Assembly: GCA_048885865.1 (NCBI GenBank) | Contig: JBHLLF010000008.1 | Span: 1 to 64,000 of the forward strand | Source: Candidatus Hermodarchaeota archaeon | GTDB taxonomy: Archaea; Asgardarchaeota; Thorarchaeia; Thorarchaeales; Thorarchaeaceae | Length of the DNA: 64,000 bases | Reading direction: 5' to 3' | Shown: positions 25,090 to 64,000 of the stretch, one piece after another | How the letters are laid out: every line of letters starts with the position of its first letter | Numbering within the stretch: position 1 is the first letter of the stretch | Made by a program: the position numbers and the translations under genes | The notes under the pieces: model-generated | The model's database searches: none | What the model saw: only the letters and a program-made list of their open reading frames with translations | Told to the model about the DNA's origin: nothing

Positions 25090-28000
25090 CTATTTCTTCT
25101 CCCTTTCTGCGTCGATGCTATCAAGAAGATCTTGCACAAGAGCTTTAGGTAGGTTCTTTGCCTGTGCGACTATTGCCTCAATCTCCACTGCTGGAATCTT
25201 TCTCTTCTTGAGTTCATTGCGCAAATCTTCTACTTCCATCTCGCCAAGGGTGTCCTCGAACTCGATCTCCTCTGCAACTGAAACTGGAGCTGTTTCCTCA
25301 ACCTGTTTGATGAAATCAGCAGCCATTTCTTTAGGCACAGTCTTTGCCTGCTCAATTATTGCATCTATCTCATGCTCAGGAGTGCCTTTGATGAAAAGAC
25401 GGCCTCTTAAGGCAACAAGATCATCCTCAGACATGGTTTCAACGGGCTCTTTCTTCTTCTTTGCCCTCTTAGTTTCCTGCTCATGCCTGAATCCCTTAAG
25501 TAGCTCCATAGCTAGTGCTCTTGGGACTTCTCGTGCTTGCTCTAGAATCTTGTCGATTTCCTTTACGCTAGCACCTTCATCTGCAAGCTGCTGTCTGAGC
25601 ATCTCGATCTCCATATCGCTGAGTTTTGCCGTATCTACCTCAGTTTCATGCATGTCAACAGCTGAACCAAAGCTCTTGAGAAGCATCTCAGCCACATCCT
25701 TGGGCAAGCCTCTGGCCTGACTAATCACGGCATCAACCTCATGCATTGGAAGGCCTCTTTCAAGAAGGCCTGTTTTCATCTCCTGCAATTCCTTCTCACT
25801 GAGATGATCTTCGTCCACAGCGGGCTTCTCAATTGGAGCAAACAGAGCTGCTTCTTCAGCTTCAATATCAAAGCCAGGAAGCACGGTGCGTGTGGCTTCG
25901 CCGCCTATTCTCCTCTGGCGCTCCAACCGAACATCTTCCAACACCTGCTCAAATGACTTCTCTTCTGCTTGGGCAACTCTAGGGACTTCCTGCTTAATGA
26001 CTTCAGCAATGAAGTTGGTCTGCTGACTCATCTTCATCTTGGAGAGATCTCGTCGGAAGTCATCAATTTCCTCCGGAGTCATGTCTGTCAAAATGGCCAA
26101 GTCTAGGAGAAGCTGCTCAATCTCGGGGACATCGACAGTCACCGACTCGGGAGGTATCATCTCTGGCTTCTTGTCGATTTTCAAGTCTTCAGTGAGCTCT
26201 CTGAACAACTGTGCTATTAGCTCTGATCTGCTCAATACTTCTCCTGCTGGCTTCGGGACGCGCCTTCTTCGCAGACTTCTGATTTGAGCGCTCAGTGTAC
26301 GAATAATCTTTGGTACTCTGATAACTCGTACCCACACAATGGCGCTGAGGAGGATGATGAGTGTGAATGCACTTCCTAATGTCATAGCTGTCTGCATCAT
26401 GATGTCCGCATCAGACGGACTGATGGAGATTGTCAATACAACATTGCTTGATACATAATTCGACTTATTGAAGTGTATTGTGACCTCGATGACACCAGGT
26501 GTTGAAGCGCTGACCACTCTGAATTGATACAATCCAGGATTAACTGCATCTTCTCTACTGAACTCAATTATCGCCAAATCAGGATCATCACTAGTGATTA
26601 TGATAGTGGCTGTAGCACCGGGGATTCCTATGCCGCCATGTCCAGGCCAAATGTCAGAATATTGGACCCAGAATGTGGTTTCATTGCTGTAGGAAAGCGA
26701 GAATATTGATGGACCTAGAATCTCTGCTGTTGTTGGAATTTCAACAATGGTGACTACAAATGTAAGGGCTGCTGTTGAATAGTTCTCCAAAGAGAAGCGA
26801 ATGCTGAATTCGAACTCCGAATATAGTGTCCCCTGAGTGGTGTCAAACACGAATGAGTAGCTCCCACCCTCCCCAGCTATTAGACTCAAAGGCTCCTCGA
26901 AGAAGCCAGGTCCTGAATAAACCGACTTATTGAATATGGCACCGGGCACTCCACATGAATCCCAGGTGTTGTTGAAGAGGAGAACAACATTCAGGACATC
27001 TCCGTAAGGCACTTGAAGTTGCTCCCAGGTATCTCCTATCCGATATTCATCAGGTAGGTTGACCACTATTTCTGTGGGTACTGGGGCTATGCTTAATGCG
27101 ATTGTCAGCTGTTGGTCATTGTAGTTTATCTTCTGGAAGCCAACTGTGATTCGATATGTCCCTGGCCTAACTGTACTGGTGTTCAAAGGAACTCCATAGA
27201 CCCCATTACCGAAATCAAATGGTGCCCCAAAGCCTCCCGCCCACTGATATGTCGCTACATCTGCATCTATTCCCACACCATGGTATGTATTGAAGTATGT
27301 GAAGTTGATGTATCCAGTCCAGCCCCATACAACCTCTGGGGAGCCTGGGGATTGTATGACGGCAGGAAGGTTGTCAACAAGGACTATTGTCGAATTTTCA
27401 GCATCTGTATAGTCACTACTAGGCGGTTCCGCGGATATGACGAAATTATGAACTGAAGCGGTGCTATCACTAGTGTTGAAGAAGAAGAAGTAGTATCCTG
27501 GTCCTCCAATAAGTGAACCATTCAAGAGAGTTCCATTCAAGCCAAGTTCCGGTGAGAACCATCTTACTATGCAATTAGAGAGCCCAGTCGCGTAAGGATC
27601 CGAAGAATTCAATGCAGGTGCTAGCACGTAAACTCCAATTCTGACAGCCTCCGACCAATAGACGGGAGTGTATTCGTATGCAGCTGTAGCAGTATCAAGC
27701 CACACCTCCAAATTAATCTTGGAAACGCTCATGCTGATAGTGACAGTTGCATTCGCATAGTTTTCCTTGAAGGCAGAAACATGTATCTCATAGGTGCCAA
27801 ATGTTGCACCAATGGTGGGCATAATGATTGAGTAATATCCTGGTTGTCCGGGCACTTCTGCCAGAGTCAGGTTTGCAAATTCCCATCTCGCTGAAACATT
27901 AGCGTCCATTACCATGCCCCCAGATTCAGAATCCTCAAGGTATACAACTATTGATGCTTGTCCTCCATAGTCCACCGTGAAGAAATATCTGCTATCTTCG

Positions 28001-34000: not shown

Positions 34001-37000
34001 CTGGCTTCGTTTGAGGAAGTAAAATCAAAGCTCCAGATACCATAGACATCAATAGCGGATGATGGAACCATGACTTGCGTCGCTGTTGTCGTCACTTCGG
34101 ATGTCCGTATGTTATCAAAGGAGTCAGTGACACTCTGGAGCGTCCAAGTTGAGAGCTTATCAAGAGTTAGATTGATGTTGGCGACCCCTGGTGGAGGATT
34201 AATCAAGATATTCGCAGTCCATGTTGCTTCAGTTCCATTGGCAACAGAGAATGATGTCCCTGGAATCATGCTTGCATCTAGAGAGGTTTCCTGAGTGGTG
34301 ATACCAAGAGTCATTCTTGGAAGGATACTTACTACAGATGAGGAATCTGTCGTGAAGAACAACGTTGCGTTTTGTCCATATTGCACACTCTGCTCGGAGC
34401 CAACGCTGAGAAAGCTGGATGGGTCGTACTGATTTGCATATTCAGTCTGTATCCAGTCGGCTGACTTGTAGCCCATTATTGTGCGAAACTCGTCAATTCC
34501 TCCAAGGTGAACTTGGCCTCCGCCATATAGACCAAGAGAGAATATACTTGGATCATCTCTCAGCTTGGCTCCTGCTCCCATACCTGAATTAGCATTTGAG
34601 TCTGTAAGTGTGCCGTCTGCATAACTGTAGGCATGTAATGTTCCGTCCCCTGTGCTCTCATACTTGTACACAATGTAGTTCCAAGTCTGACGTTTCACCA
34701 ACACATTCAGGTAGCTGGTGTATCCGCCATCAAAATGTATGTCGGGCTGGAACGAGGCTTGGCCAGCTGGCCACCCTGTTGTGCCCCTGAATGTTCTACA
34801 TAGAGTGATGCTTGTGCCTTTCTCAAAGATTCGGGGCTCTACACTGGTCCATTCGGCATCACTTGAGTAATCGAAGTAGATCCAGAAGGAAAACTGGAAG
34901 TCTGTCCAGCCGTCAAGAATACTATCACTATCGATGAAGGGGATGTAATTGCCAGCCGCATCTTGGAAGTACCGGGCAGCACCAATTTTCGCATTCTGCA
35001 TGAAGGTTGTCTGGACAGGCATGCCATCGTGGTAATTCTGACTTGAGTCTTCTAAGAACGAGCCATTGCCAGACTGTTCTGAGAGGTGCCAAACACTGTT
35101 GTAGTCGTCCCAAATCCCATGTGGGTTTTCTGGGATGCTTCCATCTGGAGCTCCGTAGGACATCGTGACAGTTGTGTCAGTCGAGGAAGACAGCAAAGGA
35201 ACCCTCACCCAAGCTACAAGATGTGCGTGTGTTGAATTATGGTTAGAGTCATATAGTTCGAATTCATGGTCTAGTGTTTGTGAGCCAATTGTGAACTTGA
35301 TATCTTTCCCATCTGGTCGAGCATCAGTCTTGAGGTCACTGTCATAGATGTCCACCAAGACCGGGAAGTCCTCTAGGTCCGAGCTCACCTTTGTGTGGTC
35401 GATCGTCAGGTCCTTCTTGTATTCAAGAATGGAAATAGTGTCTTCTTCTTGAGGCACTAGGAAGTCGACGTAAAATGTAGCCAAGTCTAGGCCGCCATAG
35501 CCCCACGTACCCCTCATAGAGTTCCAATCGCGGTACTGGTCAGAGTTCATGTAGTCAATCATGACGCAGATATAGTTCCCATTACTCCAACCGGAACGAG
35601 ACACCAAACTTTGTACAAGCGATGACATGTCTGGTGTTCTATATCTGAAATAATTCTCCCAAGTATCTTGGATCCATGCGACACTTGTATTGCTCCAAGT
35701 GTACCTATTCTCCAAATTGGGTAGCCCATTTGTGAAAGGTGCAACATTATCTTCTTCTGCAACAAAAACTCGAAGGGAATTAGCCCCTCCGCCCCAGTAC
35801 CCTAATGCCTCTACTTCCAACGCCGCAGAAGTAATAATTGCGCCTTGAGGTATATCCAAAGGGAACTGGATTCCAATTTGATATTTGATGACATCATCCC
35901 AAGATGTGCCGCTGGAACTCCAAACACCAACCTCTAATGCGCTGGAAGTGCTGATTCCAGTGTCAGAGCGACTGAAGCAATCTCTTGAAGCCCCGTCTGG
36001 AACATATGTGGAAACACTTCCAGGAATAGAGCCAGTGATTACAGTCTGGTTCGCACTCAGACCAATCTGCTCCGGAAAGGGTCTTGCCTGCAAGACTACA
36101 TCGATCTCGTCAAGATACAACTGATGATCAACGGTAGAAGATGGTGTTCCAGAGTAGTCAGTCCCCACACCTATGTCAAGATCCAGTGTTCCAGGTATTG
36201 GATATGCATCGAATGCTGACATTGGCACTTGCACTGAATACTGGAGCCATTGATCAGTAGGGTCTCCAGACTCGAATAGATGTAGTTTGGCCACATAATT
36301 ACCCATTCGAACAAAAAGGTAGAAGTAGTCATTCAAAGTCGATTGACTCCGCACATAGTAGTAGAGTGATATTTGGGCCCCGTAGAGTTCTCTGTAGGGT
36401 AATTGCACACTCTGGGTCAGATACAACTTCATGCTTGGATTAATGGCATTTGTTGTTCCGAAGGTTGCAGTGTATCGCCATCCCATTGAACCATCTCTAC
36501 CTGAACCAGAATAGCTATGGAAGTAAAGGCGTCCATAGTATGGATGAATGGCCGATTCACCCTCTTCAATAATGCTCCATTCATCTGGCACATTATACTC
36601 CATCGCATTCCATGGCGAACCAGAAATAATCGTGCGTTCTGTGTGGTATGTGTCAAGAAGCCCATTTTTAATTGGCTGGAATGAAGTTGAGATTTGACTA
36701 ATCGATCCGCTCAAGGAGGTTCCGGTCCACCCTTGAGGTCCGCTTATTGTTACTGGAGTCGGTGCCAATGAGTCAAGTAAAACAATACCTTGAGAATCAT
36801 TGGAAATCGCCCCATTCAGTGTCACACTCTGGGAGGCCCCGCTTCCTCCATAGGATTGAGCTCCCGAAGAAGCCAATACGTTCGTGTTTCTTTCTTGAGA
36901 TGATGAAAACCTTTCTCCATTTTGAGCGGGCAAGGATCCAGGAATGGGGCAGCAAAGCAAGATCAGCATTCCTATCATAGCCAGCCTAAACGGCATACGC

Positions 37001-55000: not shown

Positions 55001-56675
55001 GAAAGTTCTGTAGGTCTGCGGCAACCTTGCGATGATCGATGACTATGTTCTTGTTATATCTAAAGCTTGGAATGACGTCACTTGGGTCAGGCGCAGTAAA
55101 ATCAACAAACAGTCTGGCAAGATCAGCCTGCGGATACCCAGCTGAGCCCTTTATGTTATTGTACTCATAATCCAGAGTGGAGTATGCGTAATCAATCATT
55201 ATACAGATGTAGTTGCCACTCTGCCACCCGGGTCTGGATACCACCTCTTGGATTAGAGCTGACAAGTCGGGCGTGCTATATCTTCCGTTGGTAAGCCACG
55301 TTGTGGGGCGCCAATAGACACTAGTGTTGACCCAATCATATCTGTCTTCCAAAAGAGGATATCCTGTTGTGAATGCAGATACATCATCCTCATCTGCAAC
55401 ATAGATTCGCATTCCAGGATGCCCAGTTGAGTCGAAGGCTGCTTCCACCTGCAGGACAGCAGATGCAATTGTGGATCCCTGTGGCACATGTAATGGAAAC
55501 TGAAGTCCGACATTATAGGGATCTGCGGTAGTCCAGTCGCCCGGGGTGAGCAAATCACAACCCACGTCAATGTAGCCGCCATCATCGTATCCATTCAAAT
55601 CCACGCCTCCTGCACCCCAATTTGACGAGTCAGCGCTATAGCAGTCTCTGTTGCTCCCGTCGGGAACATACGGTGAAACACGTCCTTCAGTTGATCCCGT
55701 CACTCGGGCTCCATTTGCTAGTAGGTCAATCTCTTCTGGATAAGGTCGTACAAGAAGCCTCAACTCAAGCTCGTCAATGTACATTTCATGGGTCCCGCTG
55801 GCGGGAGGATTGCCACTCAAGTCTGTTCCAACACCAATGTCAAAGAGCAATGCATCCTTCGTTTCCAGTGACTGCAAATAGGAAGCGGGAACAGTGGCTT
55901 TGGCTTGCAGCCATGTGTCAGTGGGTGTGCCAACTTCATATACATGGTGTTTAGTAACATAGCCTTCCACCCTAGTAAAGACATGAACCATGTCATCCAT
56001 ACTAGAAAGACTGGAAACATAATACCGGAAAGTGATTTCAGCAGAGTAGACTTCTCTCCAAGGCGCAGGGATCTGTTGACTGATGTAGATTCCCATGGTT
56101 GGGTCGAAGATAGCGCCAGTATTATAGTTTGCATCAAACCTCCAACCCATGGAAGCATCATATCCTTCTCCAGACCTGCCGTTGAGCTCAAAATAGCCGT
56201 GTTGAGGATGTGGAGTCCCGCTAGGAGGTGCATCGTTCTTTACTATGGTCCAGCCATTCGGAACATAGAAGGGATCTCCGTTGTATTCTGGATAGCCATC
56301 AATGGGAATCCATAACTCTTCGTGATTGGCGTCAAGATTTGGATTGACTAGAACATCTTCGACCCACATCGAGAGGTGCTCAAGATCTGCTTCCAGTTGC
56401 TCCGAGCTCCATCCCAAGGGTGGGTCGACACCAATAATCCAAGGATGGTCTGCGTCAATCACAGAGGTCCCGCTTGAAACAGTCATTCCTTGATAGTCGA
56501 CAGGCCTGGGTGCACCTGTCCCTGATGAAAGATCATGCCAATCGGAAGGTGCTGACTCAGAGTCACGATTCCCAGTAGCATCCAAATATGGAACGACATG
56601 GTCGAACTCTGGACCTCCGATTGTGGGGAGGAGAAAGATGATAAACAGCATCATCGCTGCGGCCGGCTTTCGCAT
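37050..56675 (-). CDS. Giant (~6540 aa) single-pass surface glycoprotein, paralog of 25090..37053, with nine DUF2341+LamG modules
   Basis: Uninterrupted 19.6-kb ORF with the same domain order. The likely start is ATG 56675 (MRKPAAAMMLFIIFLL signal peptide, GGGAG SD). TM at ~37745-37815. Confidence 0.87.
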   Translation of the reverse strand: MRKPAAAMMLFIIFLLPTIGGPEFDHVVPYLDATGNRDSESAPSDWHDLSSGTGAPRPVDYQGMTVSSGTSVIDADHPWIIGVDPPLGWSSEQLEADLEHLSMWVEDVLVNPNLDANHEELWIPIDGYPEYNGDPFYVPNGWTIVKNDAPPSGTPHPQHGYFELNGRSGEGYDASMGWRFDANYNTGAIFDPTMGIYISQQIPAPWREVYSAEITFRYYVSSLSSMDDMVHVFTRVEGYVTKHHVYEVGTPTDTWLQAKATVPASYLQSLETKDALLFDIGVGTDLSGNPPASGTHEMYIDELELRLLVRPYPEEIDLLANGARVTGSTEGRVSPYVPDGSNRDCYSADSSNWGAGGVDLNGYDDGGYIDVGCDLLTPGDWTTADPYNVGLQFPLHVPQGSTIASAVLQVEAAFDSTGHPGMRIYVADEDDVSAFTTGYPLLEDRYDWVNTSVYWRPTTWLTNGRYSTPDLSALIQEVVSRPGWQSGNYICIMIDYAYSTLDYEYNNIKGSAGYPQADLARLFVDFTAPDPSDVIPSFRYNKNIVIDHRKVAADLQNFPVLVDIWDADLHLDVQPDGDDIAFLYDGQVIPHEIDVFDKLGNGTHAHLSAWVNVPYVSSTQDTTIVMVYGDDDLGGQEITVDVWDSDYSAVWHLSENPAQPQWDSTYADYMPHQPQILDVTSPESSGTSYGSMTSSDLVDGIIGGAIDLEGSNDYLDFGNPTELQLNGAFTVEAWFYADYVDNDYLVVKSGEFNYRGWDISFDNDPSISPAGWVMFRWSPDGVATDLVGYERVDTGQWYHAVGVFSPSEYTRFYLNGKLVGEVTSGVPASVNDPNRPVRIGRRSDSAGATSYFDGIVDEVRISSIARSDAWIRTQYINQRNPELFISVGDEGVNFLYKKDITIDHSKVAGDLTDFPMLIDIYDTDLRTDVQADGDDIIFTSSSGYLPHEIELFNQQHNSTHAHLIAWVKTDLSSTSDTIISMHYGNPSIGNQENPAEVWRADYAGVWHLGESNGDAIDSTQFGLSGSVSASVIYSQTGIAGNCYEFNGVNGNVNFGNPSDSHLDFGLNTFSYSLWVRVDQSTGNYQLPLFKGGTMTTDAGYEFETNTAGSDLKAEVADGTVQVISDSTSVTFGQWIYIVAVVDVPGGFLRFYANGASVGSPQSISSLGDVSSSQSLQLSPFSYPVEGLIDEVRVISEARSSEWILTEYSNQYDPSGFYAVGVEGFSQPIEGQYKKDIVVDHNKVNADLMDFPLLVNIYDMDLKTDAQPDGDDIIFKMGTKLLSHEIELFDQNYNTTHAHLVAWVKTDLSSTIDTTIVMYYGNPAATNQQDPDGVWTSNFRGVWHLKEIGDGTSGEYKDSSAYGNHGRGGGGTAGYVPNLIAGRIAGGQQFDGADDFIEMQNSVSLDITTDKITVGGWIYSADISPSGGIAIKSDDSGSGYYGLTFETSAIWVYTDVPGNPPDWNWNTGYNIGTAGWHYVVYTYDGVNRRLYIDGYEQDYSAMSGNIDTNTEPLIIGRQEWTGTTDGIIDEVRVAEIARTPGWILTEFENQNDPAGFYSIGAEQYIQQIELTYKKDIVIDHTKVDADLTEFPVLINIYDTDLKTDVQADGDDIVFAKDGFIIPHEIEVFEQSYNTSHAHLVAWVKTNLLSSTDTVITMYYGNPTAVNQENAAGVWDSNYAGVWHLKEDPTGAIHDSTSNSNHGTGYNLQSDDQVDGQIDGSIDFDNNQDHIDCGSDSSLNVGSNDFSLSLWFKYDGVDMGVLAGKGAVLNAKRYRLSIESGPGMLMAQIDDNTVAKSVTSTSTYGDNLWHHVSLVRDGNYLRLYIDGVEDPNSPTDITGYGSLDESESFYIGAFRSEVGGTIGYWSTANTDEVRVANMAYSPEWIATEFNNQYDPASFYSVGSETFTQPVEFAYEKDIVVDHTKVSADLTDFPLLIDVFDADLRTDVQSDGDDIIFKIGTTPLVHEIEIFDQEYNSTHAHLVAWVKTDLSSTIDTTITMHYGNPEASKQENPSAVWSNGYVGVWHLGEASGSVQDSTPYGQDGTPFGGVTLGVLGRIGSASDFDGIDGYINMEDPADGHLDFGLNSFTISIWLKIDASTGSWQAPLNKGHPSGLKSGYRFETNTLGQNIYFQIGDGTSYESTGSYSVTFGEWMHLVACVDTSSNTMHLFKDGSYSGDVDISGIGSVSSTDNFTISRGLSSPNPVDGLIDEVRVSNTARSDGWVITEYNNQLNPSSFYSVGAEIITQPVEFAFRKDIVVDHTQIDADLSDFPMLIDIYDTDLKTDVQADGDDIIFKMNDALVPHEIELFDQDYNLTHAHLVAWVKTDLSSTVDSAVTMYYGSPQASNQENPNSVWNDNYMGVWHLGETSGGSGAFKDSTSNNNHGTDAGAPTLGINGPIGNAILFDGVDDSINCGNGPSLNIAGDVVTLEAWAYLNEDIGPGWGSGIVVKYGSYEIFQDWDATRRITFSVTTTGTGQTWIARTNNDINRWYHVVGVYDGTTTFIYVDGTEIASIPNSGTLAVSGSPLNIGLEDQYYDGRIDEVRVSNIDRSAEWILAEFRNQNDPTSFYTVGYELTPQPKGFNYRKNITIDNTKVSSDLVGFPLLIDIYDTDLKIETQVDGDDIIFKTGDVSLSHEIELFDRDYNSTHAHLVAWVKTDLSSSSDTIVTMYYGNPEATNQEDSDGVWDSSYMGVWHLSETSGNAQDSTPYQTHGTPSGLLTQGVSGRIGNAYYFDRDGLGTVNMGDPADGHLDFGNTDDFTIEFWVDLDYFYYYEPFLVSKRNGLASSSPGYAAFVSDDNNGYPGYSISSDGPQFGVDASSPVLNTGWRHVVYVFDQDSDTISTIYVDGIDDKSSIWGTIGSVGSLQNSANFRLNGESSPTTDDMFDGMLDEVRISKIARSSDWILTEFNNQNDPSSFYSISAAEFLGVAPEYNYMKNITIDHTKVGSDLTDFPLLIDIFDSDLRSDVQPDGDDIIFKIGTSSLPHEIELFDQTYNSTHAHLVAWVKIDLSSSVDTTITMYYGNPSINNQERPSEVWNSNYVAVWHFNQDPSSTSILDSTANGYHLTALGFDSDSRVYDGRLGTAISVDGINDRFAVSSISGPLLDTTFQSWFKFDNTFPPGSEMHFFRGNSLTNDYPLMRFASSGIVVTHIEVTSDNDDSCTGTKNSWAADSWFQFSFVRSTAAVMAYHYINGSLDASDNSADNANPHLPWDQLAILSDFSAGNMWGPGAISEFRILGAVLSPEWIATEYANQNDPASFYSVGAEEQIAIPEEPSEPSLLDASGYKFSTSSDVAITIGLSSSLGTHTSGFSYTDDYIPGTSFSIVNGSLAVWTANVLVSPPPEIESISFELSYPEGEWYPFSVMSPSGVEKSFATDWTCFDGKLIVASTAIDEYGMWRIRFQDRNHVFDTQMGLSGGPYTPSGTFLIGEEIQFRIWSSGTMSSGISLDLTDPYGSTWYSGAATFQGQKFALPYSHRKYLTISHENVATDLVNFPVLVDIYDADLRTDVRADGRDIAFAIGEETLAHEIELFDQTFNSTHAHLAAWVKVPLLSGSSDTAISMYYGNPIAPIVYDSGPVWDSGYLGVWHLAESGTGALDEYTDSSQYKHHGQGGEGQATYVPTQVSGKIGFGQDFNNLDGNYDLIDCGDSPLWNIDGYQLTLEAWVQHDITPNTHIYGIMNHKGWYNGYSLFINEGGVSTLKPVFNVQGETHQLVGANDVMGGSWHHIVATYDGSLMRIYVDGVQDPNVLQKTDAILPSTAEQGFWIGHGDQPKDVVWSAEYEGQIDEVRISDVARPAGWIETQFKNQNDPSSFFSISIEQSPGYSESAAITLDSSAQAGVWQATARYYDDGANVDQSVGIFSRNFIVKRGASMSLTAPGDAVSDGISAKLIGEGLYVEFELSDTLTSLPISGATMTMNWTVSGAPTQIQLNDYGDGSYGRVLNTTDLGTAQRWRIELTSSHQFYGDAFNVFFLDLSHQTYLTYEPPSAAPYGDDFTVKITLRDSFNSQPLANAGFASNGTIIGAPVDYGNGTYLLTIDSSALSTGTHAFRFTATPSDSYLLSSSIDVQFDYRQVSTDAYALSSDPVEVPWGEQATVTIHWYDIDHSGIGIDGGTASINPPVALQTADIGGGDYALTIDTSSYLPGTYVFDVTLSEANYEDATASVTVIVKVHSTSVSADYSPSTPVGTSTHFDISFLDVDGGSVGIGVGNLSQVTLDWGSGPQAFFPYGFWLDTSAWSVGVYTINITVYATTAPRYYSDATISVDLEIRKLEVYVSWEHLEPFPNGDDFVMFAHLNISEPGSSIDGDPINGLTQAYFTAKNETGWQYTFESFAFLGEGRYQLIIDQSNFLEGEYTIVVYVDFLPAENYIDSQTPVITFTYRPILTYLSSDDYPTVTTTYDTNVTITLNYVDIDNNVNITTGSITAEGASITWQHLGNGVYEVLVIVQGWNLGTHEVNITADALSYKAKTLTFEVIVQIAYAYARSSDSSIDLPLGDTAVLYVDYWDIIHDEPILGASIDHNWTHALTVIWTGSQYRVELPSLQTDSLGSYFILFNVSKGSNYQFGYFNLSLTLRTHYTEVRLGSAVEPTTYVGMVNVSLYYGDLDNDVGVASQYVNVSVYGVAGWIDSTLENDTASGNGYYIIRFPALVLGESGLYNFTVYVNWTGPTQQFYNGMIRTSVNIIGEESELSLEDSPGPTPYLENMSYTYFYGELYSGVGISNATGDVFIFIEFVGESIDTSLVSILEGMPGHYTLEFNTTIFAKPGVFTMVVQVNWSASASPFYDNRTDTISVRVIPRNTVVSVTPPDSTSYGINATFSFSYDDVSNVIPVTIPNDARMTVVVNLPDYSISYNSTTREFHVSFNTSVLGASLGSKQFTISITWTGSPFYANITARTIFITVASRETSFDFATPSPTSYGEMATFTVTYLDVAGAIPSPIDDGTITLYNDSQPIPVSFYSYIPLGSGKYTIELNTSYFSRPDSYSLEIQITTTQFYYPDVTGSRTLNVRYRITTLAAESAGIVSYNSSIPLVLHYSDLFSLSPISNISLLTSIEILNGSSWIFTSNWRGVSQDYLVTVQTFNQILDVDTDYVLWIRFTYADASPFYLAAETFVSFRLRERTTYLDVTESPLPTPYLDFVNFTVAYRDLESSTAIGGANIVLSIDAINLMEGTEYILQTSGDGIYQISINATAIGIPGTTKSLVVSAEWPSGAPYYTDTTISLTVSVVVRPASVRIISSPTQVRFLDNITFTFSYNDDSTDDFITLTKNMVSIYSGGSLLQSSDFAMSFAGNGYRIGINSAILSPYLVTNWNVTVFVDWSSTDPPYYSDDAASVGVTVTNRVGSISLGNAPTIPIGDNMTLTFSYQDQDNGLGIGDAIIVFDCLNPSGLVENTDFWIVRGFGPEFGEYTIIVDTNKLGGVGLYTFSLLLQWNQSIAPYYRNASEIFLIGSVRLIQSQLYYYEPSPTTVPIRDNVSVVLTFTDTDHLLAIAGAESDISVTYKSDGSVPSIWCITVIAPGIYELTVNCTDAGSTGTNALVIQINLSNYQFAEVQVPIQIRARQGELTKIESPDAYFGEQTYAIVELVDIDASSAPIHDAMLNLIWPETSSYVYIGSGMYNITLDTTTLGADLYTLVVSAQKADYFIPEISISIKVLNIPTGIILPQTVPDVHWGESVSIWALFNDTRSGTLIPGAAVNYQFGILSGSLTEGTPGNYSFTVDTGNLPLATTYLVSITARLDNYDTVSGQVTVNILRLNLELTIVDGLNSQVLYKGEPINITVFVRDAYNDVPLTGASVSAKWIFDMNGVSLAPVPGMNGYYTGLIATVAASTKTYSIVVSAEKTNYLTMTSSAEVNIKQILTKVNLDPLTETYSSQVFDWTDTIRIGVFVLAPTLNDTGLSNCTVTWSLSGTFLTGEFLNGSSIGGPGYFYFDFYTYEYNATTYTLRFTAYPLVGAYAPSNNMTTITIRLIQTTVESTFVAPKVWGWAGWVNLTYWNLLEDRGVVAAEVGIDWEGMEQQSRYIIDGVYQVWINTSLVSPGVYPVVVSFWKHNYEAGTGVFTLTVREVPTEIVAYTPSQYQIDGNVLNLQIPYGDSLPITLFYNDTWYNQGISNASDLTAVILHPSISDKDILLMSELSFGNYSLVIDSSQWIISSTPYRVVANLGLENRSRATLNLYITIINIPTALTADHEIVLMNYIETFTIRVFYYDIWEGHNNQGIPGGFPNATSLNLDYVKVESRQPDPSNPGWYEITLRSEWAQGSAVILIELSKENYDSAVVTVAVSVEPSDINLLLERSILYGLPIGIICIIGAVLWSRLFSLPKRLREIRGMVKDINRGRIPKVPDGVQNRRDILTELFNEIIEPIGIVRSADSMPEYSLVAEVPEMEELLIQLSILTQLTPEELDDFRADVTKMKLSEQAAFIKEVISQEVIKRAKIEKKSIEKIHKETLEQARALIAGKVIAPPTEPVVGEKEEPPEKTELKKPDLSKAKDELPPELVSQEEIEQIRKRLVEAGIGGHELETIMEQVQDLPRDLVEDLINSILKKGGGKP
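45230..46265 (-). repeat. Ninth DUF2341+LamG module, separated from the tandem array
   Basis: YSHRKYLTISHENVATDLVNFPVLVDIYD ... GQIDEVRISDVARPAGWIETQFKNQNDP. Confidence 0.85.
46890..55065 (-). repeat. Eight tandem ~1.0-kb coding repeats (DUF2341+LamG modules)
   Basis: Module starts (x-Y/F-K/R-K-D/N-I-x-I/V-D-H..V..DL..FP) near 55060, 53995, 52980, 51965, 50940, 49925, 48935 and 47885. A 30-nt stretch is identical at 49692-49721 and 50706-50735. Confidence 0.88.
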
Positions 56676-56714
56676 GTTTACAACTCCCACTAAGCAATGC
56701 AGGGATGGGACCAA

Positions 56715-56810
56715 CAGAACTGACCGAATAAATTAAGATAAGATATTCTTGTACATTGATTTGAGTTAATATATACGAATATAATATATTAGGTGTTTGT
56801 TTGGTTTGAT
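56715..56810 (-). promoter_or_regulatory. AT-rich putative promoter region of the giant-protein operon
   Basis: Sharp AT enrichment with TATA-like tracts (ttaatatata, ataatatatt) upstream of the 56675 start. Confidence 0.4.
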
Positions 56811-56822
56811 TTGGCTCGTCGT

Positions 56823-57446
56823 CTAGAGGTATTCGATTCTCCCCATGTCAGTCAAGGCGTTAAGTGCTGGGGGGTTGAGAATCTCTATATTTGGCTCCCT
56901 CCAAGATACGAGTTTTGTTTTCTCTGGAACGGAAAGCTTGTGCAATGACGCACATGAAAAAAGAGCACTTAGGTCAAGTCGCATGATGTCATTTCCAAGT
57001 AGGTTCAGCTCCTCAAGTCTTGGACACTTAGAAAGCGGGGTGAGATCTAATGCTTTCATTTGATTATCCTGTAGATACAGAGTTGTGAGGTTCTGACATT
57101 GAGCCAGTGGTTCCAAGTCCAATCTGAACAGTGCATTGTTGCTGAGGTCCAAATGCTTCATATCGCAATACTTCAGTGAATCAATGTCAATCACTCGTAA
57201 ATGATTTGAATTGAGTCTAAGGCTGTGCAGAGATTTGCAGAATGCCAACGCCACCAAATCCAGGGTCATTAGGCTATTATTGGCTAGATTCAATTCCTCC
57301 AAACCGGTCATATTGTCCAAGGGGCCAAGGTCGATTGCCATAATTGACTCGTTTGAGAAGTCCAAGGATAAACTGTCCGGCACCACTGGTATCTTCCTCG
57401 ATGTTCCATCTGCCAATGTCACCTTAAAGTGTATCAAGACCTTCAC
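56823..57446 (-). CDS. Leucine-rich repeat protein
   Basis: About six 22-23-aa repeats of the form LxxLxLxxNxLxxLDLxPLxxCxx. Confidence 0.9.
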   Translation of the reverse strand: MKVLIHFKVTLADGTSRKIPVVPDSLSLDFSNESIMAIDLGPLDNMTGLEELNLANNSLMTLDLVALAFCKSLHSLRLNSNHLRVIDIDSLKYCDMKHLDLSNNALFRLDLEPLAQCQNLTTLYLQDNQMKALDLTPLSKCPRLEELNLLGNDIMRLDLSALFSCASLHKLSVPEKTKLVSWREPNIEILNPPALNALTDMGRIEYL

Positions 57447-57653
57447 TCACTCTACGATTCATCCAATCTTAATCCTGGGTGAATAATCGCCTATTCATTT
57501 CAATATATGGCGCTTCTCCAGATTGAGTTTGGCTAGTCAGAATTTCCCATTTTGGCACATATAGAGATAAGCGAAGAATTAATATGATATAATAGCATAA
57601 AATTTAATGTATTATTATATGACATAAGGTATTGTGTGGAGTGTGACGTCATC

Positions 57654-58955
57654 ATGAAGGTCCCTGGAACTACCATGGACATAAGTCTCAAGACCAACAA
57701 AATATTCGCTGTTGATCAAGGAGTCATGAAGCGAATCAAATACGCTGGACGGACCTTCATGGAAGTACTCGAAGAGCTTCAAAGATTCGCATATCTAAGG
57801 GGATACAACGCTCCAACTACTATATTGAAATTCATTCTCAAGCGAATCGGCCTTCCTGATGTTGAGGTGTTCCCGTCTGAAGATGAACTGACGAAAGATG
57901 ATATCACTGAACTCTCGAAAGCACTCAATATTGTTGACAGCCTCAAGGATGAATTCCTATCTGCGACGCCAGAGCCCATAGTGCCTGAGGATCTAAAGAA
58001 TTACACTGTCATAAAACCGAAGCAATCAGACGACTTCACCCTAGAGGGCATAGCTCCTGATGACACTATGCCTATAGATGTGACTCCTGATGCTCCCATT
58101 GAAGCAGAGGCTGCTGCAGAAACTCCCGCGTTTGATAGATCCTCTATCTGGGATGATGTGCCTCAGAGTGAGGAAGCTGTGAAGCTAATCTACAATTTCC
58201 ACTGGGAGAACCTTCCAGTAAATACCCCCACACCCAGAACCAAATCCTCTGAAGAACAAGAAACCAAGAAACCGAAGTTCATCTGGGATGATGAGGGTGA
58301 GTTGGAATCTTTCGAGGATGTCAGACCAACTGAGGAGCCAGCTCCCGAACTCCTCGGAGACTCCCATGAACTAAAATCTCTGTTCCTTGGAGAAGCACAA
58401 GTAGGTGTGAAAAGCATACTCTTTGAATGCAACCTCAAAGAAGCAGAAGATCTATCCTATGTCTATCGGGATGTTGTTCAACACGATGAAAACCTTGTCG
58501 GGGTAAATGTCTGGACCTTTGAAGGCTCGCAGGCAGCAAGAATCCCGCGCCAGGAGTTCTTTACTGGTACGGGAATTGCAGTCCTTGTGTATTCAGTAGC
58601 TGACAGATGGAGCTTCGATAGTCTTGATTTCTGGATTAAAGAACTAACCAGTGTCTTCTTGGTTCCACCTCCAATGATTATCGTAGGCAACAAGACAGAC
58701 CTTAGAGACCATCCCGTATACGGTGAGGACGATGAGTTTGAACCTCCAGTTACTACAGCAGAAGGCGAAGAGTTCTGCAAGAAAATGGCAAATGAACTAG
58801 GTGAAAACGGCGAAGCTCATCCAATAGTGTTCATGGAAACTTCCAGCATTACAGGTGCAGGTATCTCCGACCTACTAAGCACGATGATTGATCTTTGGCT
58901 GACAAGTGAGAGGCCAAGCATGCCAGCTGTGGAATCGCATGTCATTAAGCGTTGA
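57654..58955 (+). CDS. Rab-like pseudo-GTPase with an N-terminal unknown domain and an acidic linker
   Basis: VLVYSVADRWSFDSLDFWIKEL, IIVGNKTDL (G4) and FMETSS.TG (G5) are Rab/Ras-like, while G1 reads GEAQVGVKS and G3 reads WTFEG. The start is probably ATG 57654. Confidence 0.8.
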   Translation: MKVPGTTMDISLKTNKIFAVDQGVMKRIKYAGRTFMEVLEELQRFAYLRGYNAPTTILKFILKRIGLPDVEVFPSEDELTKDDITELSKALNIVDSLKDEFLSATPEPIVPEDLKNYTVIKPKQSDDFTLEGIAPDDTMPIDVTPDAPIEAEAAAETPAFDRSSIWDDVPQSEEAVKLIYNFHWENLPVNTPTPRTKSSEEQETKKPKFIWDDEGELESFEDVRPTEEPAPELLGDSHELKSLFLGEAQVGVKSILFECNLKEAEDLSYVYRDVVQHDENLVGVNVWTFEGSQAARIPRQEFFTGTGIAVLVYSVADRWSFDSLDFWIKELTSVFLVPPPMIIVGNKTDLRDHPVYGEDDEFEPPVTTAEGEEFCKKMANELGENGEAHPIVFMETSSITGAGISDLLSTMIDLWLTSERPSMPAVESHVIKR

Positions 58956-59004
58956 TTCTGTACACTTTGAATCATGCTAGTTCTCCACGGACTTATTTGA
59001 AAGG

Positions 59005-62000
59005 CTATTTCTTTTCAGAATCAATGCTCTTCAGAAGCTCGTCAACTAGAGCTGCGGGTAGGTTACGTGCTTGTTTCAAGATGGATTTTATCTCTTCCTC
59101 TGGGAGTCCTCTCTTTTTCAATTCCTTTCTAAGGTCCTCAATATCCATTTCACTAAGCCTATCCTCGAATTCTACTACATCTTCGTCTACGGGGGCAAGT
59201 CCCTCCACTTCTTGAAGGAATTCCGAAACCAGGTCTCTTGGAACCTTCTTGGCCTGTTCTATGATATTCTCTATCTCTTCCTCTGGTGTTCCCTTGATGA
59301 ACAACCTACCTCGAAGCGCAACCAGCTCATCCTCGGTCATAGTTTCAGGAGGTTCTGGTTTCTTCTTAACTTCATGATCCTCTCTGAATCCTTCCAGCAG
59401 CTCCATTGCCAATGCTCTAGGCACACCCCTAGCTTGATCAAGAATCTTCTCTATCTCTTGGAGTTCCGCTCCTTCTTCTCTAAGTTGCACCCTCAGCATT
59501 TCGATTTCTGAATCAGTAAGATATGCTACATCCTCTTTTGTTTCATGCATGTCAACAGCTTGCCCTACACCCTTAAGCAGCATTTCCCCTACATCCTTGG
59601 GTAGCTGTCTTGCTTGTTCAATCAATGAATCAACTTCATGAATTGGAAGTCCTCTAGCTATGAGTTGGGAGCGCATCTCAGCTAGCTCTGACTCTGTGAG
59701 CCGGGCCTCAGGTGCTTTCTCAACCTCTGCCCATTCGGTTGGTTCACTTATTCCATATATTTGTGCAAGGGGCCTGCTATCTGTAACTTCTCCACCAATC
59801 AAGCTAATTCTCTCTTGACGTACCTCCTCAAGAACCTCTTCCACAGTCGTATTCCTTTCCTGGGCAATTCGAACGGCTTCCTGTGCAATAACTTCGCGGG
59901 CAAAGGAAACTTGCTCGCTTCCCTTCATTTTTGATACAGCTTGTCTAAACTCCTCAAGCTCCTCTGGTGTCATGTCCGTGAGTATCGAAAGGTCAATGAT
60001 CATTTCTTCAATCACTGGAATATCAATTACAATAGGTTCAGCTGCAAGACCTTCAATTCCCCTTGAGAGACCTATAGGGTCACCCATTTCGTTGAATAAT
60101 TCAGAAACAAGCTCATGTCTGCTTTTTATCGTCTTGTCTGTTTTGGGTATCTTCCCTCGTGTCAGTTGTCTTAGCATGGCGGAGATTCTTCTGACCATTT
60201 TCGGAACCTTAAGAACTCTTCTCCAGAACACACCAATCAACGCGAGGGCGATAATGAACGCAGGCCCATAGGCCAGCATGTTCTGAACCAATATATCGGT
60301 TTCAGAAGGACTTACAGATATGGTGAATCGTATTCGTTGTTCTTGGAAGTTGGTCCTATTGACGACAACATCGAGCTCGGCCGTCCCTGGTCTACTCAAT
60401 GCAACAAGAGTGATAATATAGTAGCCATCAGCACCAGCTGGTGTTACACTTGTAATATCTAGATATGAATCAATGTCGCCCGTGACTACAAGATTGGCAT
60501 CAATTATGCCCTCTGAATCATGACCTGGCCAAGTATCATAGTAGAACACTTCGATAGATATCTCTTGGTTGTAAAGAACTGATAGAACTGAGCTGCCAAT
60601 TACTTCCAGTCCTGTAGGAATCTCGATGATCTTGATTTCAAAGACTAAGCTGGCTGAAGTTCGATTCTCAAGAGATAAAGCAATAGTGAATACAAACTGG
60701 TCAAGCAATTCCCAATCATTTGAATCAAAGTTGAATGAGTAAGTCCCCAATGGTGTACCTTGAATTTCAAGTTCCCTTTCAAAGAAGCCCGGCCCAGAAT
60801 AATGGGCCGTAACAATGGTTGCACCAGCAATGCCTCTGTTCAGGTATGTATTATTATAGAGAATAGACACCAGCAATGCCTCTCCGTAGGGAACATGCAA
60901 CAGAGTTCCGCTCTCATCCCCAAAATAATAGGATGATGCTACTATCACTGCTTCAGTTGGCGCAGGTTCGACACGAAAAGTGATGCTACTCTCAGAATCA
61001 TCATAGTTTAGCTTACTAAATCCAATTGATATGCGATAAGTTCCAGGTCTCACCAAGCTCGTGTTTACGGGAATACTATAGACTCCGTTGCCTTGATGTT
61101 GAAGAACACCAGAACCGAGAGCCCAAGAGAATGATGAGTCTGCATCAATAATGCCAACTCCGTTATACAGGTCTTGATATGTCACATTTATGATACCACT
61201 CCATCCCCAATTGATACTCATATACCCTGGGGCAAGAGTAGTGGTTGGCAAATTCCCTATGACTAACACAAGTGAATACACGGCCTCAGTGAAGTTACGT
61301 CCAATAGCATTGGCTGTTATCCTGAAATTATGGATTGTAGCTGTTGTAAGAGATGTATCGAAGTCGAAGTAGAAATATCCCGGCCCTCCAATTGATGAGC
61401 CATTTACGAGGGTACCATTTGCTGCTAATTCAGGGGAGTACCATGTTACGCTACATGTTGGAATAGTTATGTTCGCCTCTGGAACTACAACATACACTCC
61501 TATCCTAACTACTTGCGACCAGTTAATTGACGTGTATTGATATGTGCTTGTAAGGGCATCTGGTTCAAGTTCAATTAGTATCTGCGTGACAGTCATGGTG
61601 AGAGCAAGAGAAGCTGAGGTGTAGTTTTGCTTTGAGGCACTGATAATGATTTGATAAGACATCGTTTCAGCAAGCTTGGTGGATATAGTAAACCAGTAGT
61701 ATCCCGGCATACCCGGTACATCAACTAGACTAATGTTACTACCAAATTCCCAATTTGCATGAAGGGTAGCTCCATCAACAAGTATCCCGCTTAGCGTGTC
61801 TTCCAAAAAGACTGTGATGTTCTTGTCGCTTTGTTGATTCACATTGAAAGAATACATACCACCCTCGGGTGCCAAGTCCATGGGCCGTGGAAGCAACCTG
61901 AATGCAATCTGTTCTGTTGCCAGAAGATAGTTTGGAGCTCTTGCGCTGACAGTAAGTACCATAGTGCCTGTAGTCGAACCATGAATTGTGTCAATAAAGG

Positions 62001-64000
62001 AAGTGTAGTTGCCTGGAATCAGTGTACCGGAAAAGCTACCATTTCCTCCAACCCACGAGTAGGTCACCTGCGCGCCTGCAATCAGGACTCCACGAAGAGT
62101 GTCATTATATGCCGCATATACCTCTAGCATTTCTCCCCAGTAAATCTCAGTTGGATTGTAGGATCTCGGCCCAGTCCAAGAAATCGCCAAGTCAGAGGGT
62201 ACACTTAGAAGAATTACTGACATTCTTAGTGTCTGGATATCGTAGTAGTCAAGTGTAGCTGTGATATTCAGACTCTGAGTGCCATAGTTCAAATTAGTAG
62301 TATCCAGAGTGATGTTGTAGACTCCATTTCCCAAACCAATCCACCCAACTGCATCACCCCATTCGATATCCAAGTCTGCACCATCAAGAGATCTATCTCC
62401 TGCATCAAAATCAGAGATGGTGACGAGAGCGTAAGTGGAGTATCCTGCATAGTTTGTAGGACCAATGGTTCCAGTCACGATGGCATTTCGGAGTCGAACT
62501 TGTACCGGTGTTTCAAACTGGAGACTCTGGTATGGCATGTAATCAATTCTGATGATGAACGTCTGGAGTCCAGGAGCTATCAAATCAGACATATTCGCGG
62601 TTATATTATACAAACCTCCGCCAAGTGGAACTACATTCCAACTCTGCGGCTCCAGACCAGTAGATTTGTACTCCAAGGTGATGAAAGCTTCAGCACCGCC
62701 AATTGGCTGGGCATGATCTATATCCGTAAAATTCAGCACAAAAGAAACGATCTCAAGATATGGCACAACTGATGGTGAGGGAAGATCATAAGATACTGAT
62801 GCATATACCAACCTTACCACTCCTGTCATTCTGATGCCGGTCAAGTTTGCATAATAGGGGCTGACACCAGGGTTCCAAGATACACTTAACAAGAAAGTGA
62901 ATTGTCCAGTTTGTCCTAGTGCGTTACTGTCCACATGGACAGTGTAGATTCCCCTTTCTGGTCCAACTCCCTCAAGAATCCAGTAATCAATTCCTTCTAA
63001 AAGCGCAGGTCGTTCAATGCATGAGAAGCCAATTATTGCTCCTGAGATAGCAGCTCCAGTATCTCTGTCATTATATGCGAAATTCAGAGTGACATTATCT
63101 CCCATGGGTGTTGCAATGATTTGAGATGGGCTGACCACTCCTTGTCGACTTGAAGTTGTCACGAGGACCGCAGTTCTATCATCAAGGTAGTACGGGGATG
63201 TTCCATTCCAATTCACCAAAACTGTAACATTCCATTTGTAGACAAGATTTGAACTCAGAACTGTGGAATTAATGCTAGCCTCAAAAGCTGTTCCTAATCT
63301 TGCTATCATGTAATCTGAGCTAATTAGCAATACGCCTCCGCTATAGATCGCAACCTCGTCTGTGGAGATTGCAATCGCTTGACCGGTTTCAATATCAACA
63401 TAAGCAAATTGGAACGTAACGTTATCGAGGTATTGAGTTTGGGAAGGTGGAAGGAGGATTTCTACATTGGTGGGTCGTCCAGTCACTGAAAGCCCAACAT
63501 TGAGAACTGCGGCGCCATAGAATGGAGATCCAGCTGTCCAGTTTGCTGTCACTTCTATAGACTTCGCTCCGGGAATTCCTAGTGATGTTGTTTTAATCGA
63601 GATGAGGTATTGCCCATTCATCAAGTCATCCACAGTGAAATCTACTAGCTCTGCAAGCTGAATTATGCCATGGTGAATTATGATTTCTCCTCCAGAAATG
63701 CCTGAAAGGCTTACGGAATCTCGATAGACTACGGTGAAATTCACCCGATCAAGATAGGGCGCTGGGGATGGAGCTGATTCTAGTGTAGTTTGTGTGTCTC
63801 TGAATGTCAGCTTGAATGAAATATCGATGCTTGCCCAAGTATAGAATGGCACTTGTTCTTCATAGCTGAAGTTTAATGAAAGCAAATACGGTCTGTGAAT
63901 ATCTAGACCCTGATTGTATGTTTCTACGACGAGCAGATAGTCTTGGAATGAATCGCGCCATGTGCAGGTGAATATCCAGTCGGTTCCGTTTAGTATGCTG
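59005..64000 (-). CDS. Third giant single-pass surface protein paralog (5' part outside the window): Ig-like stalk, TM helix and four-repeat cytoplasmic tail
   Basis: The frame stays open to the window end (SILNGTDWIFTCTWRDSFQDYLLVVETYNQ) and is collinear with the other two giants. TM at ~60215-60280, and the tail motifs AVDMHET and LVALRGRLFIKGTPE are shared with 25090..37053. Confidence 0.87.
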   Translation of the reverse strand, partial: SILNGTDWIFTCTWRDSFQDYLLVVETYNQGLDIHRPYLLSLNFSYEEQVPFYTWASIDISFKLTFRDTQTTLESAPSPAPYLDRVNFTVVYRDSVSLSGISGGEIIIHHGIIQLAELVDFTVDDLMNGQYLISIKTTSLGIPGAKSIEVTANWTAGSPFYGAAVLNVGLSVTGRPTNVEILLPPSQTQYLDNVTFQFAYVDIETGQAIAISTDEVAIYSGGVLLISSDYMIARLGTAFEASINSTVLSSNLVYKWNVTVLVNWNGTSPYYLDDRTAVLVTTSSRQGVVSPSQIIATPMGDNVTLNFAYNDRDTGAAISGAIIGFSCIERPALLEGIDYWILEGVGPERGIYTVHVDSNALGQTGQFTFLLSVSWNPGVSPYYANLTGIRMTGVVRLVYASVSYDLPSPSVVPYLEIVSFVLNFTDIDHAQPIGGAEAFITLEYKSTGLEPQSWNVVPLGGGLYNITANMSDLIAPGLQTFIIRIDYMPYQSLQFETPVQVRLRNAIVTGTIGPTNYAGYSTYALVTISDFDAGDRSLDGADLDIEWGDAVGWIGLGNGVYNITLDTTNLNYGTQSLNITATLDYYDIQTLRMSVILLSVPSDLAISWTGPRSYNPTEIYWGEMLEVYAAYNDTLRGVLIAGAQVTYSWVGGNGSFSGTLIPGNYTSFIDTIHGSTTGTMVLTVSARAPNYLLATEQIAFRLLPRPMDLAPEGGMYSFNVNQQSDKNITVFLEDTLSGILVDGATLHANWEFGSNISLVDVPGMPGYYWFTISTKLAETMSYQIIISASKQNYTSASLALTMTVTQILIELEPDALTSTYQYTSINWSQVVRIGVYVVVPEANITIPTCSVTWYSPELAANGTLVNGSSIGGPGYFYFDFDTSLTTATIHNFRITANAIGRNFTEAVYSLVLVIGNLPTTTLAPGYMSINWGWSGIINVTYQDLYNGVGIIDADSSFSWALGSGVLQHQGNGVYSIPVNTSLVRPGTYRISIGFSKLNYDDSESSITFRVEPAPTEAVIVASSYYFGDESGTLLHVPYGEALLVSILYNNTYLNRGIAGATIVTAHYSGPGFFERELEIQGTPLGTYSFNFDSNDWELLDQFVFTIALSLENRTSASLVFEIKIIEIPTGLEVIGSSVLSVLYNQEISIEVFYYDTWPGHDSEGIIDANLVVTGDIDSYLDITSVTPAGADGYYIITLVALSRPGTAELDVVVNRTNFQEQRIRFTISVSPSETDILVQNMLAYGPAFIIALALIGVFWRRVLKVPKMVRRISAMLRQLTRGKIPKTDKTIKSRHELVSELFNEMGDPIGLSRGIEGLAAEPIVIDIPVIEEMIIDLSILTDMTPEELEEFRQAVSKMKGSEQVSFAREVIAQEAVRIAQERNTTVEEVLEEVRQERISLIGGEVTDSRPLAQIYGISEPTEWAEVEKAPEARLTESELAEMRSQLIARGLPIHEVDSLIEQARQLPKDVGEMLLKGVGQAVDMHETKEDVAYLTDSEIEMLRVQLREEGAELQEIEKILDQARGVPRALAMELLEGFREDHEVKKKPEPPETMTEDELVALRGRLFIKGTPEEEIENIIEQAKKVPRDLVSEFLQEVEGLAPVDEDVVEFEDRLSEMDIEDLRKELKKRGLPEEEIKSILKQARNLPAALVDELLKSIDSEKK

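Follow-up and report, generated by a model that had tools for sequence, protein, structure and literature searches.

Eukaryotic adhesion receptors work with cytoplasmic adaptors, as in the integrin-talin and cadherin-catenin pairs, and longin subunits are found in the AP complexes. Among bacterial giant adhesins, SiiE and the MpAFP/RTX adhesins are not known to have a cytoplasmic domain. These immunoglobulin (Ig)-repeat proteins are secreted by type I systems (PMC6272769, PMC5550230). In Asgard archaea, adhesin-like giants such as LOKIASV2_19760 (5416 amino acids, aa) have been reported from Nerearchaeum marumarumayae (bioRxiv 10.1101/2025.07.22.663070), and an 'NPRL2-like' longin family has been reported from most Thor and a few Loki metagenome-assembled genomes (Liu et al., bioRxiv 10.1101/2020.10.19.343400); the two have been published separately. 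Here, a window of 64,000 nucleotides (nt), comprising positions 1-64,000 of contig C8 of genome G000, was analysed for a cluster of giant single-pass surface proteins. The host is a Thorarchaeote whose close relatives are Thorarchaeota, as expected from the initial annotation, which had assumed an Asgard host. The giants share with LOKIASV2_19760 the Asgard host, a signal peptide, what looks like a long run of beta-sandwich repeats, one membrane span and a similar size; a conserved cytoplasmic tail, gene pairs, LamG units and an intracellular partner are not described in the available part of that account. With SiiE and the MpAFP/RTX adhesins they share what appears to be a long Ig-repeat extender presenting ligand-binding domains but, unlike these, they end in an inner-facing tail of 230-400 aa. 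The giants are probably adhesin-like receptors whose juxtamembrane helices dock a longin/winged-helix adaptor that would anchor or position them and link them to a small GTPase.

The giants belong to a multi-copy Thorarchaeia family and are usually encoded as tandem pairs of an A-type and a B-type gene. Each consists of a signal-peptide-like start (called from hydrophobicity and charge only), a head of ~540 aa, LamG/DUF2341 units, a repeat stalk, one transmembrane (TM) helix and a tail. On the reverse strand of the window lie G1 (25090-37053; B-type, 3987 aa), G2 (37050-56714; A-type, 6554 aa counted from the first TTG, with the ATG at 56675 as the likely start) and the C-terminal 1664 aa of the B-type giant G3 (59005-64000), which is cut by the window edge. 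By the list of open reading frames (ORFs) these three occupy 36.6 kb of the window, in agreement with the ~37 kb of collinear paralogs recorded by the initial annotation. Its count of two complete giants and one partial giant holds within the window, but on the same contig beyond it (coordinates above 64,000) G3 is complete (C8:59005-70965, reverse strand, 3986 aa, signal-peptide-like start) and has a fourth giant, G4 (C8:70962-87440, 5492 aa, five LamG units), as its upstream partner. The contig thus carries two A→B pairs, G2→G1 and G4→G3, with a 4 nt stop/start overlap in each, and all four genes are collinear paralogs with pairwise identities of 38-49 % across 2700-3300 aa. Three other members of the genus (G001, G014 and G016) lack the G4→G3 pair at this position, which marks it as a variable duplicate. 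In this genome the family comprises at least nine genes, spread over four loci and amounting to ~110 kb or some 3 % of the genome.

A single strong hydrophobic segment was found near the C-terminus of each giant, consistent with the one TM helix previously proposed. The 30 residues that follow it hold 8-9 lysines or arginines, and N-glycosylation sequons number 69-81 in the ectodomain versus 0-1 in the tail. Hydrophobicity, positive-inside charge and sequon asymmetry therefore agree on an N-out/C-in orientation, and fused homologues have an out-in-out-in arrangement. The post-TM tail has 220-403 residues, with about 230 aa and one terminal repeat in A-type giants and about 400 aa and four repeats in B-type giants. 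In an alignment of 38 sequences the order was a basic juxtamembrane motif right after the TM helix (P..IR.I...I..L..G+.P....R), a three-helix core, a variable acidic linker and a terminal three-helix repeat of ~45 aa. The TM helix and juxtamembrane segment lie at 26122-26385 in G1 and at 37551-37817 in G2 (residues 6318-6388, the predicted adaptor docking site), and the juxtamembrane segment of G3 lies at 60013-60225. The cytoplasmic remainder comprises the core, linker and four ~45-aa repeats in G1 (25093-26133) and the core, acidic linker and one terminal repeat in G2 (37053-37559), all on the reverse strand. The core is 49-64 % identical among paralogs versus 22-45 % for the adjacent last stalk repeats. 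Structure prediction gave an all-helical tail of three-helix bundles (predicted local distance difference test, pLDDT, 87) in which no catalytic fold was seen. Pfam, PDB-sequence and ESM Atlas searches yielded no family for the tail; weak matches to RecX_HTH1 and Pex14_N, and fold matches to KIX/protein-A-like domains (Z 6.5 or less), were rejected as generic three-helix bundles.

These data bear out the receptor-like layout of long ectodomain, TM helix and conserved tail, with tails that are neither unconserved nor predicted to be extracellular (conserved core, 0-1 sequons, basic flank). The claim of a large conserved cytoplasmic domain in all giants stands for the core, whereas A and B tails differ in length and in repeats. 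An S-layer protein would be expected to end at its membrane anchor with little cytoplasmic sequence, and the tail is at odds with this. Domain searches of the giants gave no S-layer Pfam match, and no database names the family as such, homologues being 'hypothetical' or unnamed.

Profiles of the TM and tail region, which the initial annotation had proposed for searching archaeal genomes, were run on Asgard archaea. The tail was found in 84 of 86 Thorarchaeia genomes, and its TM-plus-juxtamembrane part matches large single-pass proteins in other Asgard lineages. A dedicated juxtamembrane profile matched 303 of 400 Asgard genomes: 84/86 in Thor, 14/14 and 133/135 in the large Loki families, 18/19 in Hermod, 4/4 in Odin and 6/6 in Freyarchaeum; across six families whose named members are Heimdallarchaeia it matched just 3/82. 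In the genome studied here only 10 ORFs matched the motif. Named database matches were all Asgard; the search beyond Asgards was limited, so absence elsewhere is not proven. Many motif-bearing genes of Loki and Hel stand in tandem.

Several other motif-bearing proteins were noted. About 25 fused doubles with the order ectodomain-TM-motif-TM-ectodomain-TM-motif occur in Loki and Hel (P0196-P0216, P0141-P0151; L127, L205), their halves being 40-59 % identical where compared. In G000, C52:1953-2495 (L121) encodes a 180-aa TM-plus-juxtamembrane motif protein with almost no ectodomain, about 5 kb from an adaptor paralog and a GTPase gene, and C90:2323-7998 (L120) holds a row consisting of a motif-bearing surface protein with a long acidic tail, a thiolase, an adaptor paralog and an Arf-like GTPase. 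A single-pass surface protein of 1587 aa at C93:912-5675 has a longin-like-looking cytoplasmic part without the juxtamembrane motif. Two of the rare Heimdallarchaeia matches (L176, G132:C317; L178, G177:C43) each consist of a receptor gene next to an adaptor gene; both have Loki-like sequence, lie on small contigs and are possibly contamination.

Outside Thorarchaeia and Hermodarchaeia, a soluble protein of ~370 aa is very often encoded right after the motif-bearing gene. Among loci chosen by the juxtamembrane match alone, this adaptor gene lies no more than 70 nt downstream at 23 non-Thor loci, and at least four fusions join it to a motif-bearing gene. The same receptor-adaptor gene pairs are present in two closed Lokiarchaeia genomes. 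The adaptor profile matched 310 of 400 Asgard genomes and, like the motif, 3 of 82 in the six Heimdallarchaeia-type families, two of these three exceptions being on the same small contigs as the motif exceptions. G000 has three adaptor paralogs, two of which lie near other motif-bearing genes. The third, a single-copy gene unlinked to the giants (C20:34109-35248, ~380 aa), is of the three the closest to the copy adjoining an Odin receptor gene. It was found in 82 of 87 Thorarchaeia genomes, nearly always in one copy, with 84-100 % identity across the family. Each of the three paralogs is followed by a gene for an Arf/Rag-like GTPase whose G1, G3 and G4 motifs are intact (C20:35797-37548 at the C20 locus), an arrangement kept in 27 of 30 orthologous C20 loci.

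In the model of the adaptor (pLDDT 88.6), two winged helices follow a longin domain at the N-terminus. The longin domain matched GATOR1 chain 8fw5_B (Z 12.7, root-mean-square deviation 2.6, 128 residues aligned) and the winged helices matched 2p4w (Z 9.7), while full-length Foldseek searches gave weak matches to GATOR1/SEA chains (E 2e-3 to 1e-2). NPRL2 (Pfam NPR2 and PDB chains) was matched by neither the single sequence nor the profile of the adaptor, and an Atlas cluster with NPR2 in 19 % of its members matches the longin part only. Further adaptor-related genes were observed elsewhere. In one genome (L189/L190, G229:C1:1853000-1888900) three giants of 2000-2400 aa stand in a row, each with its own near-identical adaptor gene no more than 2 nt downstream. 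A longer adaptor subfamily of ~415 aa lies upstream of Loki receptor arrays (L123, L126, L187, L192, L197) and is divergent in L123, L126 and L192. In the window itself, 13576-15522 (forward strand) encodes a protein of 648 aa that combines an Arf/Rag-like GTPase domain with an N-terminal extension, a layout similar to that of the GTPase beside the C20 adaptor.

Binding between tail and adaptor is predicted by a complex model pairing residues 6318-6388 of G2 with the C20 protein, which scored 0.84 while the best of three controls scored 0.00; in calibration, 58 of 80 solved complexes passed the mark, as did 2 of 110 mismatched pairs. Runs shared at least 93 % of contacts, and partner pLDDT was at least 76. 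The modelled interface falls within adaptor residues 147-377 and does not involve the longin domain; in it, a tail arginine that is invariant in Thorarchaeia (Arg6353 of G2) contacts the near-invariant adaptor residues Asp215 and Tyr344. PDB sequence searches with tail and adaptor found no solved complex resembling the model. Gene order, fusions, distribution and the controlled complex model all agree, and the longin/winged-helix protein is therefore favoured as the tail partner. In the mechanism proposed here, a stalk of ~24 repeats would keep a variable number of LamG units off the membrane, and the two helices straight after the TM helix would form a docking site for the ~380-aa longin plus double winged-helix adaptor, supplied in trans by the single, very conserved C20 gene. 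The winged-helix half would clamp the tail, and the longin domain would stay available, most probably to the intact Arf/Rag-like GTPase whose gene lies beside that of the adaptor. From the inner side, the adaptor would probably anchor the adhesins, cluster them or set their position, tying them to a small-GTPase switch, with the further three-helix bundles of the tail serving as extra binding modules. The overlapping pairs and the fused doubles are also gene-level hints that A and B products may form a heterodimer.

Several points weigh against this interpretation. The calibration of the complex model holds only roughly, because our own row-matched alignments were used. The complex was modelled with the C20 adaptor alone of the three paralogs, and a close relative of a genuine partner can also reach the mark. 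Conservation at the interface barely exceeds that of the other residues (p = 0.08, not significant). The adaptor gene adjoins none of the Thorarchaeia giants examined, so that the giant-adaptor pairing in G000 rests on homology and one model. The shared distribution of motif and adaptor is largely one lineage-level gain or loss rather than many independent events, and for this reason adjacency and fusions were weighed above it. Finally, the ~540-aa N-terminal head matched CBM96 in 1 of 11 members only (E 0.06) and had no match in a PDB search; it is accordingly not called a lectin.

A more specific form of the proposal, which we regard as doubtful, is an ancient Asgard module in which the giants would report cell or surface contact through the juxtamembrane dock to an NPRL2-like adaptor acting as a GTPase-activating protein or guanine nucleotide exchange factor for the linked Arf/Rag-like GTPase, with the LRR (leucine-rich repeat) and Rab-fold proteins encoded beside the giants as lineage-specific modifiers. 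Like NPRL2/NPRL3 of GATOR1, the adaptor carries its longin domain ahead of winged helices; its length is also similar, and a small GTPase is its neighbour. However, no sequence match to NPRL2 was found, full-length TM-scores are only 0.2-0.3, and GATOR1 binds no adhesin tail, unlike the role predicted here. The adaptor and the family of Liu et al. may also be different, because the adaptor is present in nearly all non-Heimdall Asgards and the Liu family in most Thor and a few Loki genomes.

The initial annotation had instead pointed to these two neighbours as possible tail partners, and signalling by the tails through them, as a dedicated four-gene system, was weighed as an alternative. The LRR gene (56823-57446, reverse strand) encodes a cytoplasmic protein of 207 aa (LRR_8, E 4e-22) and is separated from G2 by an AT-rich gap. 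The Ras/Rab-fold gene (57636-58955, forward strand; 439 aa, Ras E 4e-13) runs in the opposite direction to its neighbours, converging with G3 and diverging from the LRR gene. No TM segment was found in either protein, and both genes lie between G3 and G2 as described, but they are not embedded in an operon. The Rab-fold protein has an unnamed N-terminal domain, an acidic linker and a C-terminal domain matching Ypt6 (E 6e-18), and it resembles Ypt6/Rab6 and Rab1 in retaining G4 and G5. Unlike the Rab family, it has an extra N-terminal domain and lacks the P-loop lysine and DxxG across its clade: in place of GxxxxGK[S/T] there is a GExxVGV/I-type loop with valine or isoleucine for the lysine (13 of 13 clade members aligned), and DxxG is replaced by W-T-F-E, while NKxD is invariant and the G5 motif ETS conserved in the orthologues aligned. 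The degeneracy reported earlier is thus upheld, and the protein is classed from its sequence as a pseudo-GTPase. With the P-loop lysine and DxxG missing, it is unlikely to act as a switch.

Linkage of the two genes to the giants was found to be real. Genera g1, g24 and g26 share the order Rab(←)/LRR(→)/A(→)/B(→), and g20 has Rab/LRR/A, while the genes flanking the block differ; the LRR gene is directly upstream of an A-type giant in all four genera. (Two single-contig genomes, G004 and G039, look scaffolded and have truncated giants, and were not used as evidence of rearrangement.) Among 87 genomes, 27 have the Rab orthologue, 23 the LRR orthologue and 30 the four-repeat giant, mostly the same genomes: 24 of the 27 Rab-positive genomes have a four-repeat giant and 54 of the 87 lack all three. 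On a 30-genome tree, negative genomes are interspersed with positive ones. This co-occurrence and the invariant NKxD would favour a dedicated system, but any deletion removes adjacent genes together, the Rab gene is on the other strand, and the genome has 15 LRR and 44 small-GTPase-like ORFs. The expected synteny was recovered in part, in a block present in about a third of the genomes, while three of the four giant loci in G000 have neither gene. Such a local linkage cannot explain a tail found in nearly all Thorarchaeia, and the two proteins did not hold up as its general partners. Signalling through them is judged unlikely; a weaker form, in which their binding is restricted to this block, to either its A tail or its four-repeat B tail, is compatible with docking of the longin/winged-helix adaptor, and both are proposed as accessories of one paralogous block.

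Nearby genes and other relatives of these neighbours were also recorded. Directly upstream of G4, C8:87580-88152 (L002:11580-12152) encodes a 190-aa DUF4332/helix-hairpin-helix protein with a hydrophobic N-terminus, and C8:88275-88769 (L002:12275-12769) encodes a 164-aa protein sharing the pseudo-Rab N-terminal domain, which has two copies genome-wide; where G4-G3 is absent, the latter gene is two genes from the Rab gene. A pseudo-Rab paralog at C48:1-1488 (L122), belonging to a type present in most Thorarchaeia, is likewise without DxxG and shows GKK instead of GK[S/T]. The pseudo-Rab gene is tandemly duplicated in several g26 genomes (L051, L055, L060), and in L008 a copy lies downstream of a B-type giant.

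The winged helices raise a further possibility, that the tail holds the adaptor at the membrane and that ligand binding outside frees it to act on DNA, following the logic of the membrane-tethered RsgI/SigI of Clostridium thermocellum. The C-terminal domains of the adaptor resemble transcription regulators of the ArsR/heat-shock type (Z 8-9.7), one paralog matches HTH_5 (E 5e-4), many Lokiarchaeia giants have their own adjacent adaptor copy, and the predicted interface is on the winged-helix half. However, winged helices are also present in the non-DNA-binding GATOR1 and ESCRT-II chains that match the model, adaptor-tail fusions occur in several genomes, the gene neighbour of the adaptor is a small GTPase, and one near-invariant adaptor would have to serve at least eight giants in G000. 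Release of a DNA-binding protein is judged slightly less likely than signalling through the LRR and pseudo-Rab proteins. Least likely of all is a passive coat of structural adhesins, with the basic segment a mere stop-transfer anchor and the tail without a specific partner: giant adhesin-like single-pass proteins are abundant in cultured Asgards and were proposed to form an irregular coat (bioRxiv 10.1101/2025.07.22.663070), and the tail has no catalytic domain and generic fold matches only (Z 6.5 or less), but the motif is too specific (10 ORFs of the genome, almost none in Heimdallarchaeia) to be a generic TM-plus-basic pattern, conservation is higher in the tail core than in the stalk beside it, motif-bearing genes are translationally coupled and fused to the adaptor, and the complex model passes its controls.

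Outside the membrane, LamG units, each with a DUF2341 part, number nine in G2, one in G1, one in G3 and five in G4. Laminin_G_3 was matched in G2 with E 1.5e-140, and the nine units were placed by profile matches at 45225-55067 (reverse strand). The single unit of G1 (34384-35433, reverse strand; residues ~541-890), putatively carbohydrate-binding, was detected with profiles built from the G2 units, its DUF2341 part being weak in the domain search. The lectin-like head of the initial annotation thus survives as LamG units in all four giants, while the N-terminal ~540 aa have no clear family. In the stalks, 20-22 repeats of ~105 aa were detected, or about 24 with gaps counted: about 24 beta-rich repeats in G1 (26419-33831) and 22 detected in G2 (37860-45227), both on the reverse strand. 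This is close to the ~25 domains previously proposed. The Ig fold itself is suggested weakly, by sequence matches of which the best in the PDB (E 0.008-0.05) are every one a beta-sandwich, together with Big_3_5 (E 0.013) and Big_1/PKD Pfam matches in homologues of the giants. At about 4 nm per repeat the stalk would be roughly 100 nm long, and the giants may bind glycans, contact partner cells and signal.

Like eukaryotic adhesion receptors, the giants combine a long ectodomain, one TM helix and a membrane-proximal tail that is predicted to dock an adaptor, and their paired paralogous genes recall heterodimeric receptors. Sequence and fold searches found no homology of the tail or ectodomain to those receptors. 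Unlike longin subunits of AP complexes, the predicted adaptor contact uses winged helices and not the longin domain, and the module was not found in most Heimdallarchaeia with the profiles used. The literature searched, in which subscription journals were scarcely covered, makes no mention of the tail motif, the pairing of the genes or receptor-adaptor coupling. The present locus contributes an in-trans case, in which giants have no adjacent adaptor gene and the tail still fits the conserved copy of the genome in the model, and a measured limit on the linkage of the LRR and pseudo-Rab genes. Asgards are covered by an unusual coat whose proteins have yet to be identified, and they encode numerous small GTPases and longins that lack known inputs; this family may tie both together through one short interface. 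Its near absence from Heimdallarchaeia bears on whether eukaryotes could have inherited the module. If the more specific signalling form of the proposal is true, it would be an archaeal counterpart of adhesion-receptor-to-GTPase signalling that is missing from most Heimdallarchaeia.

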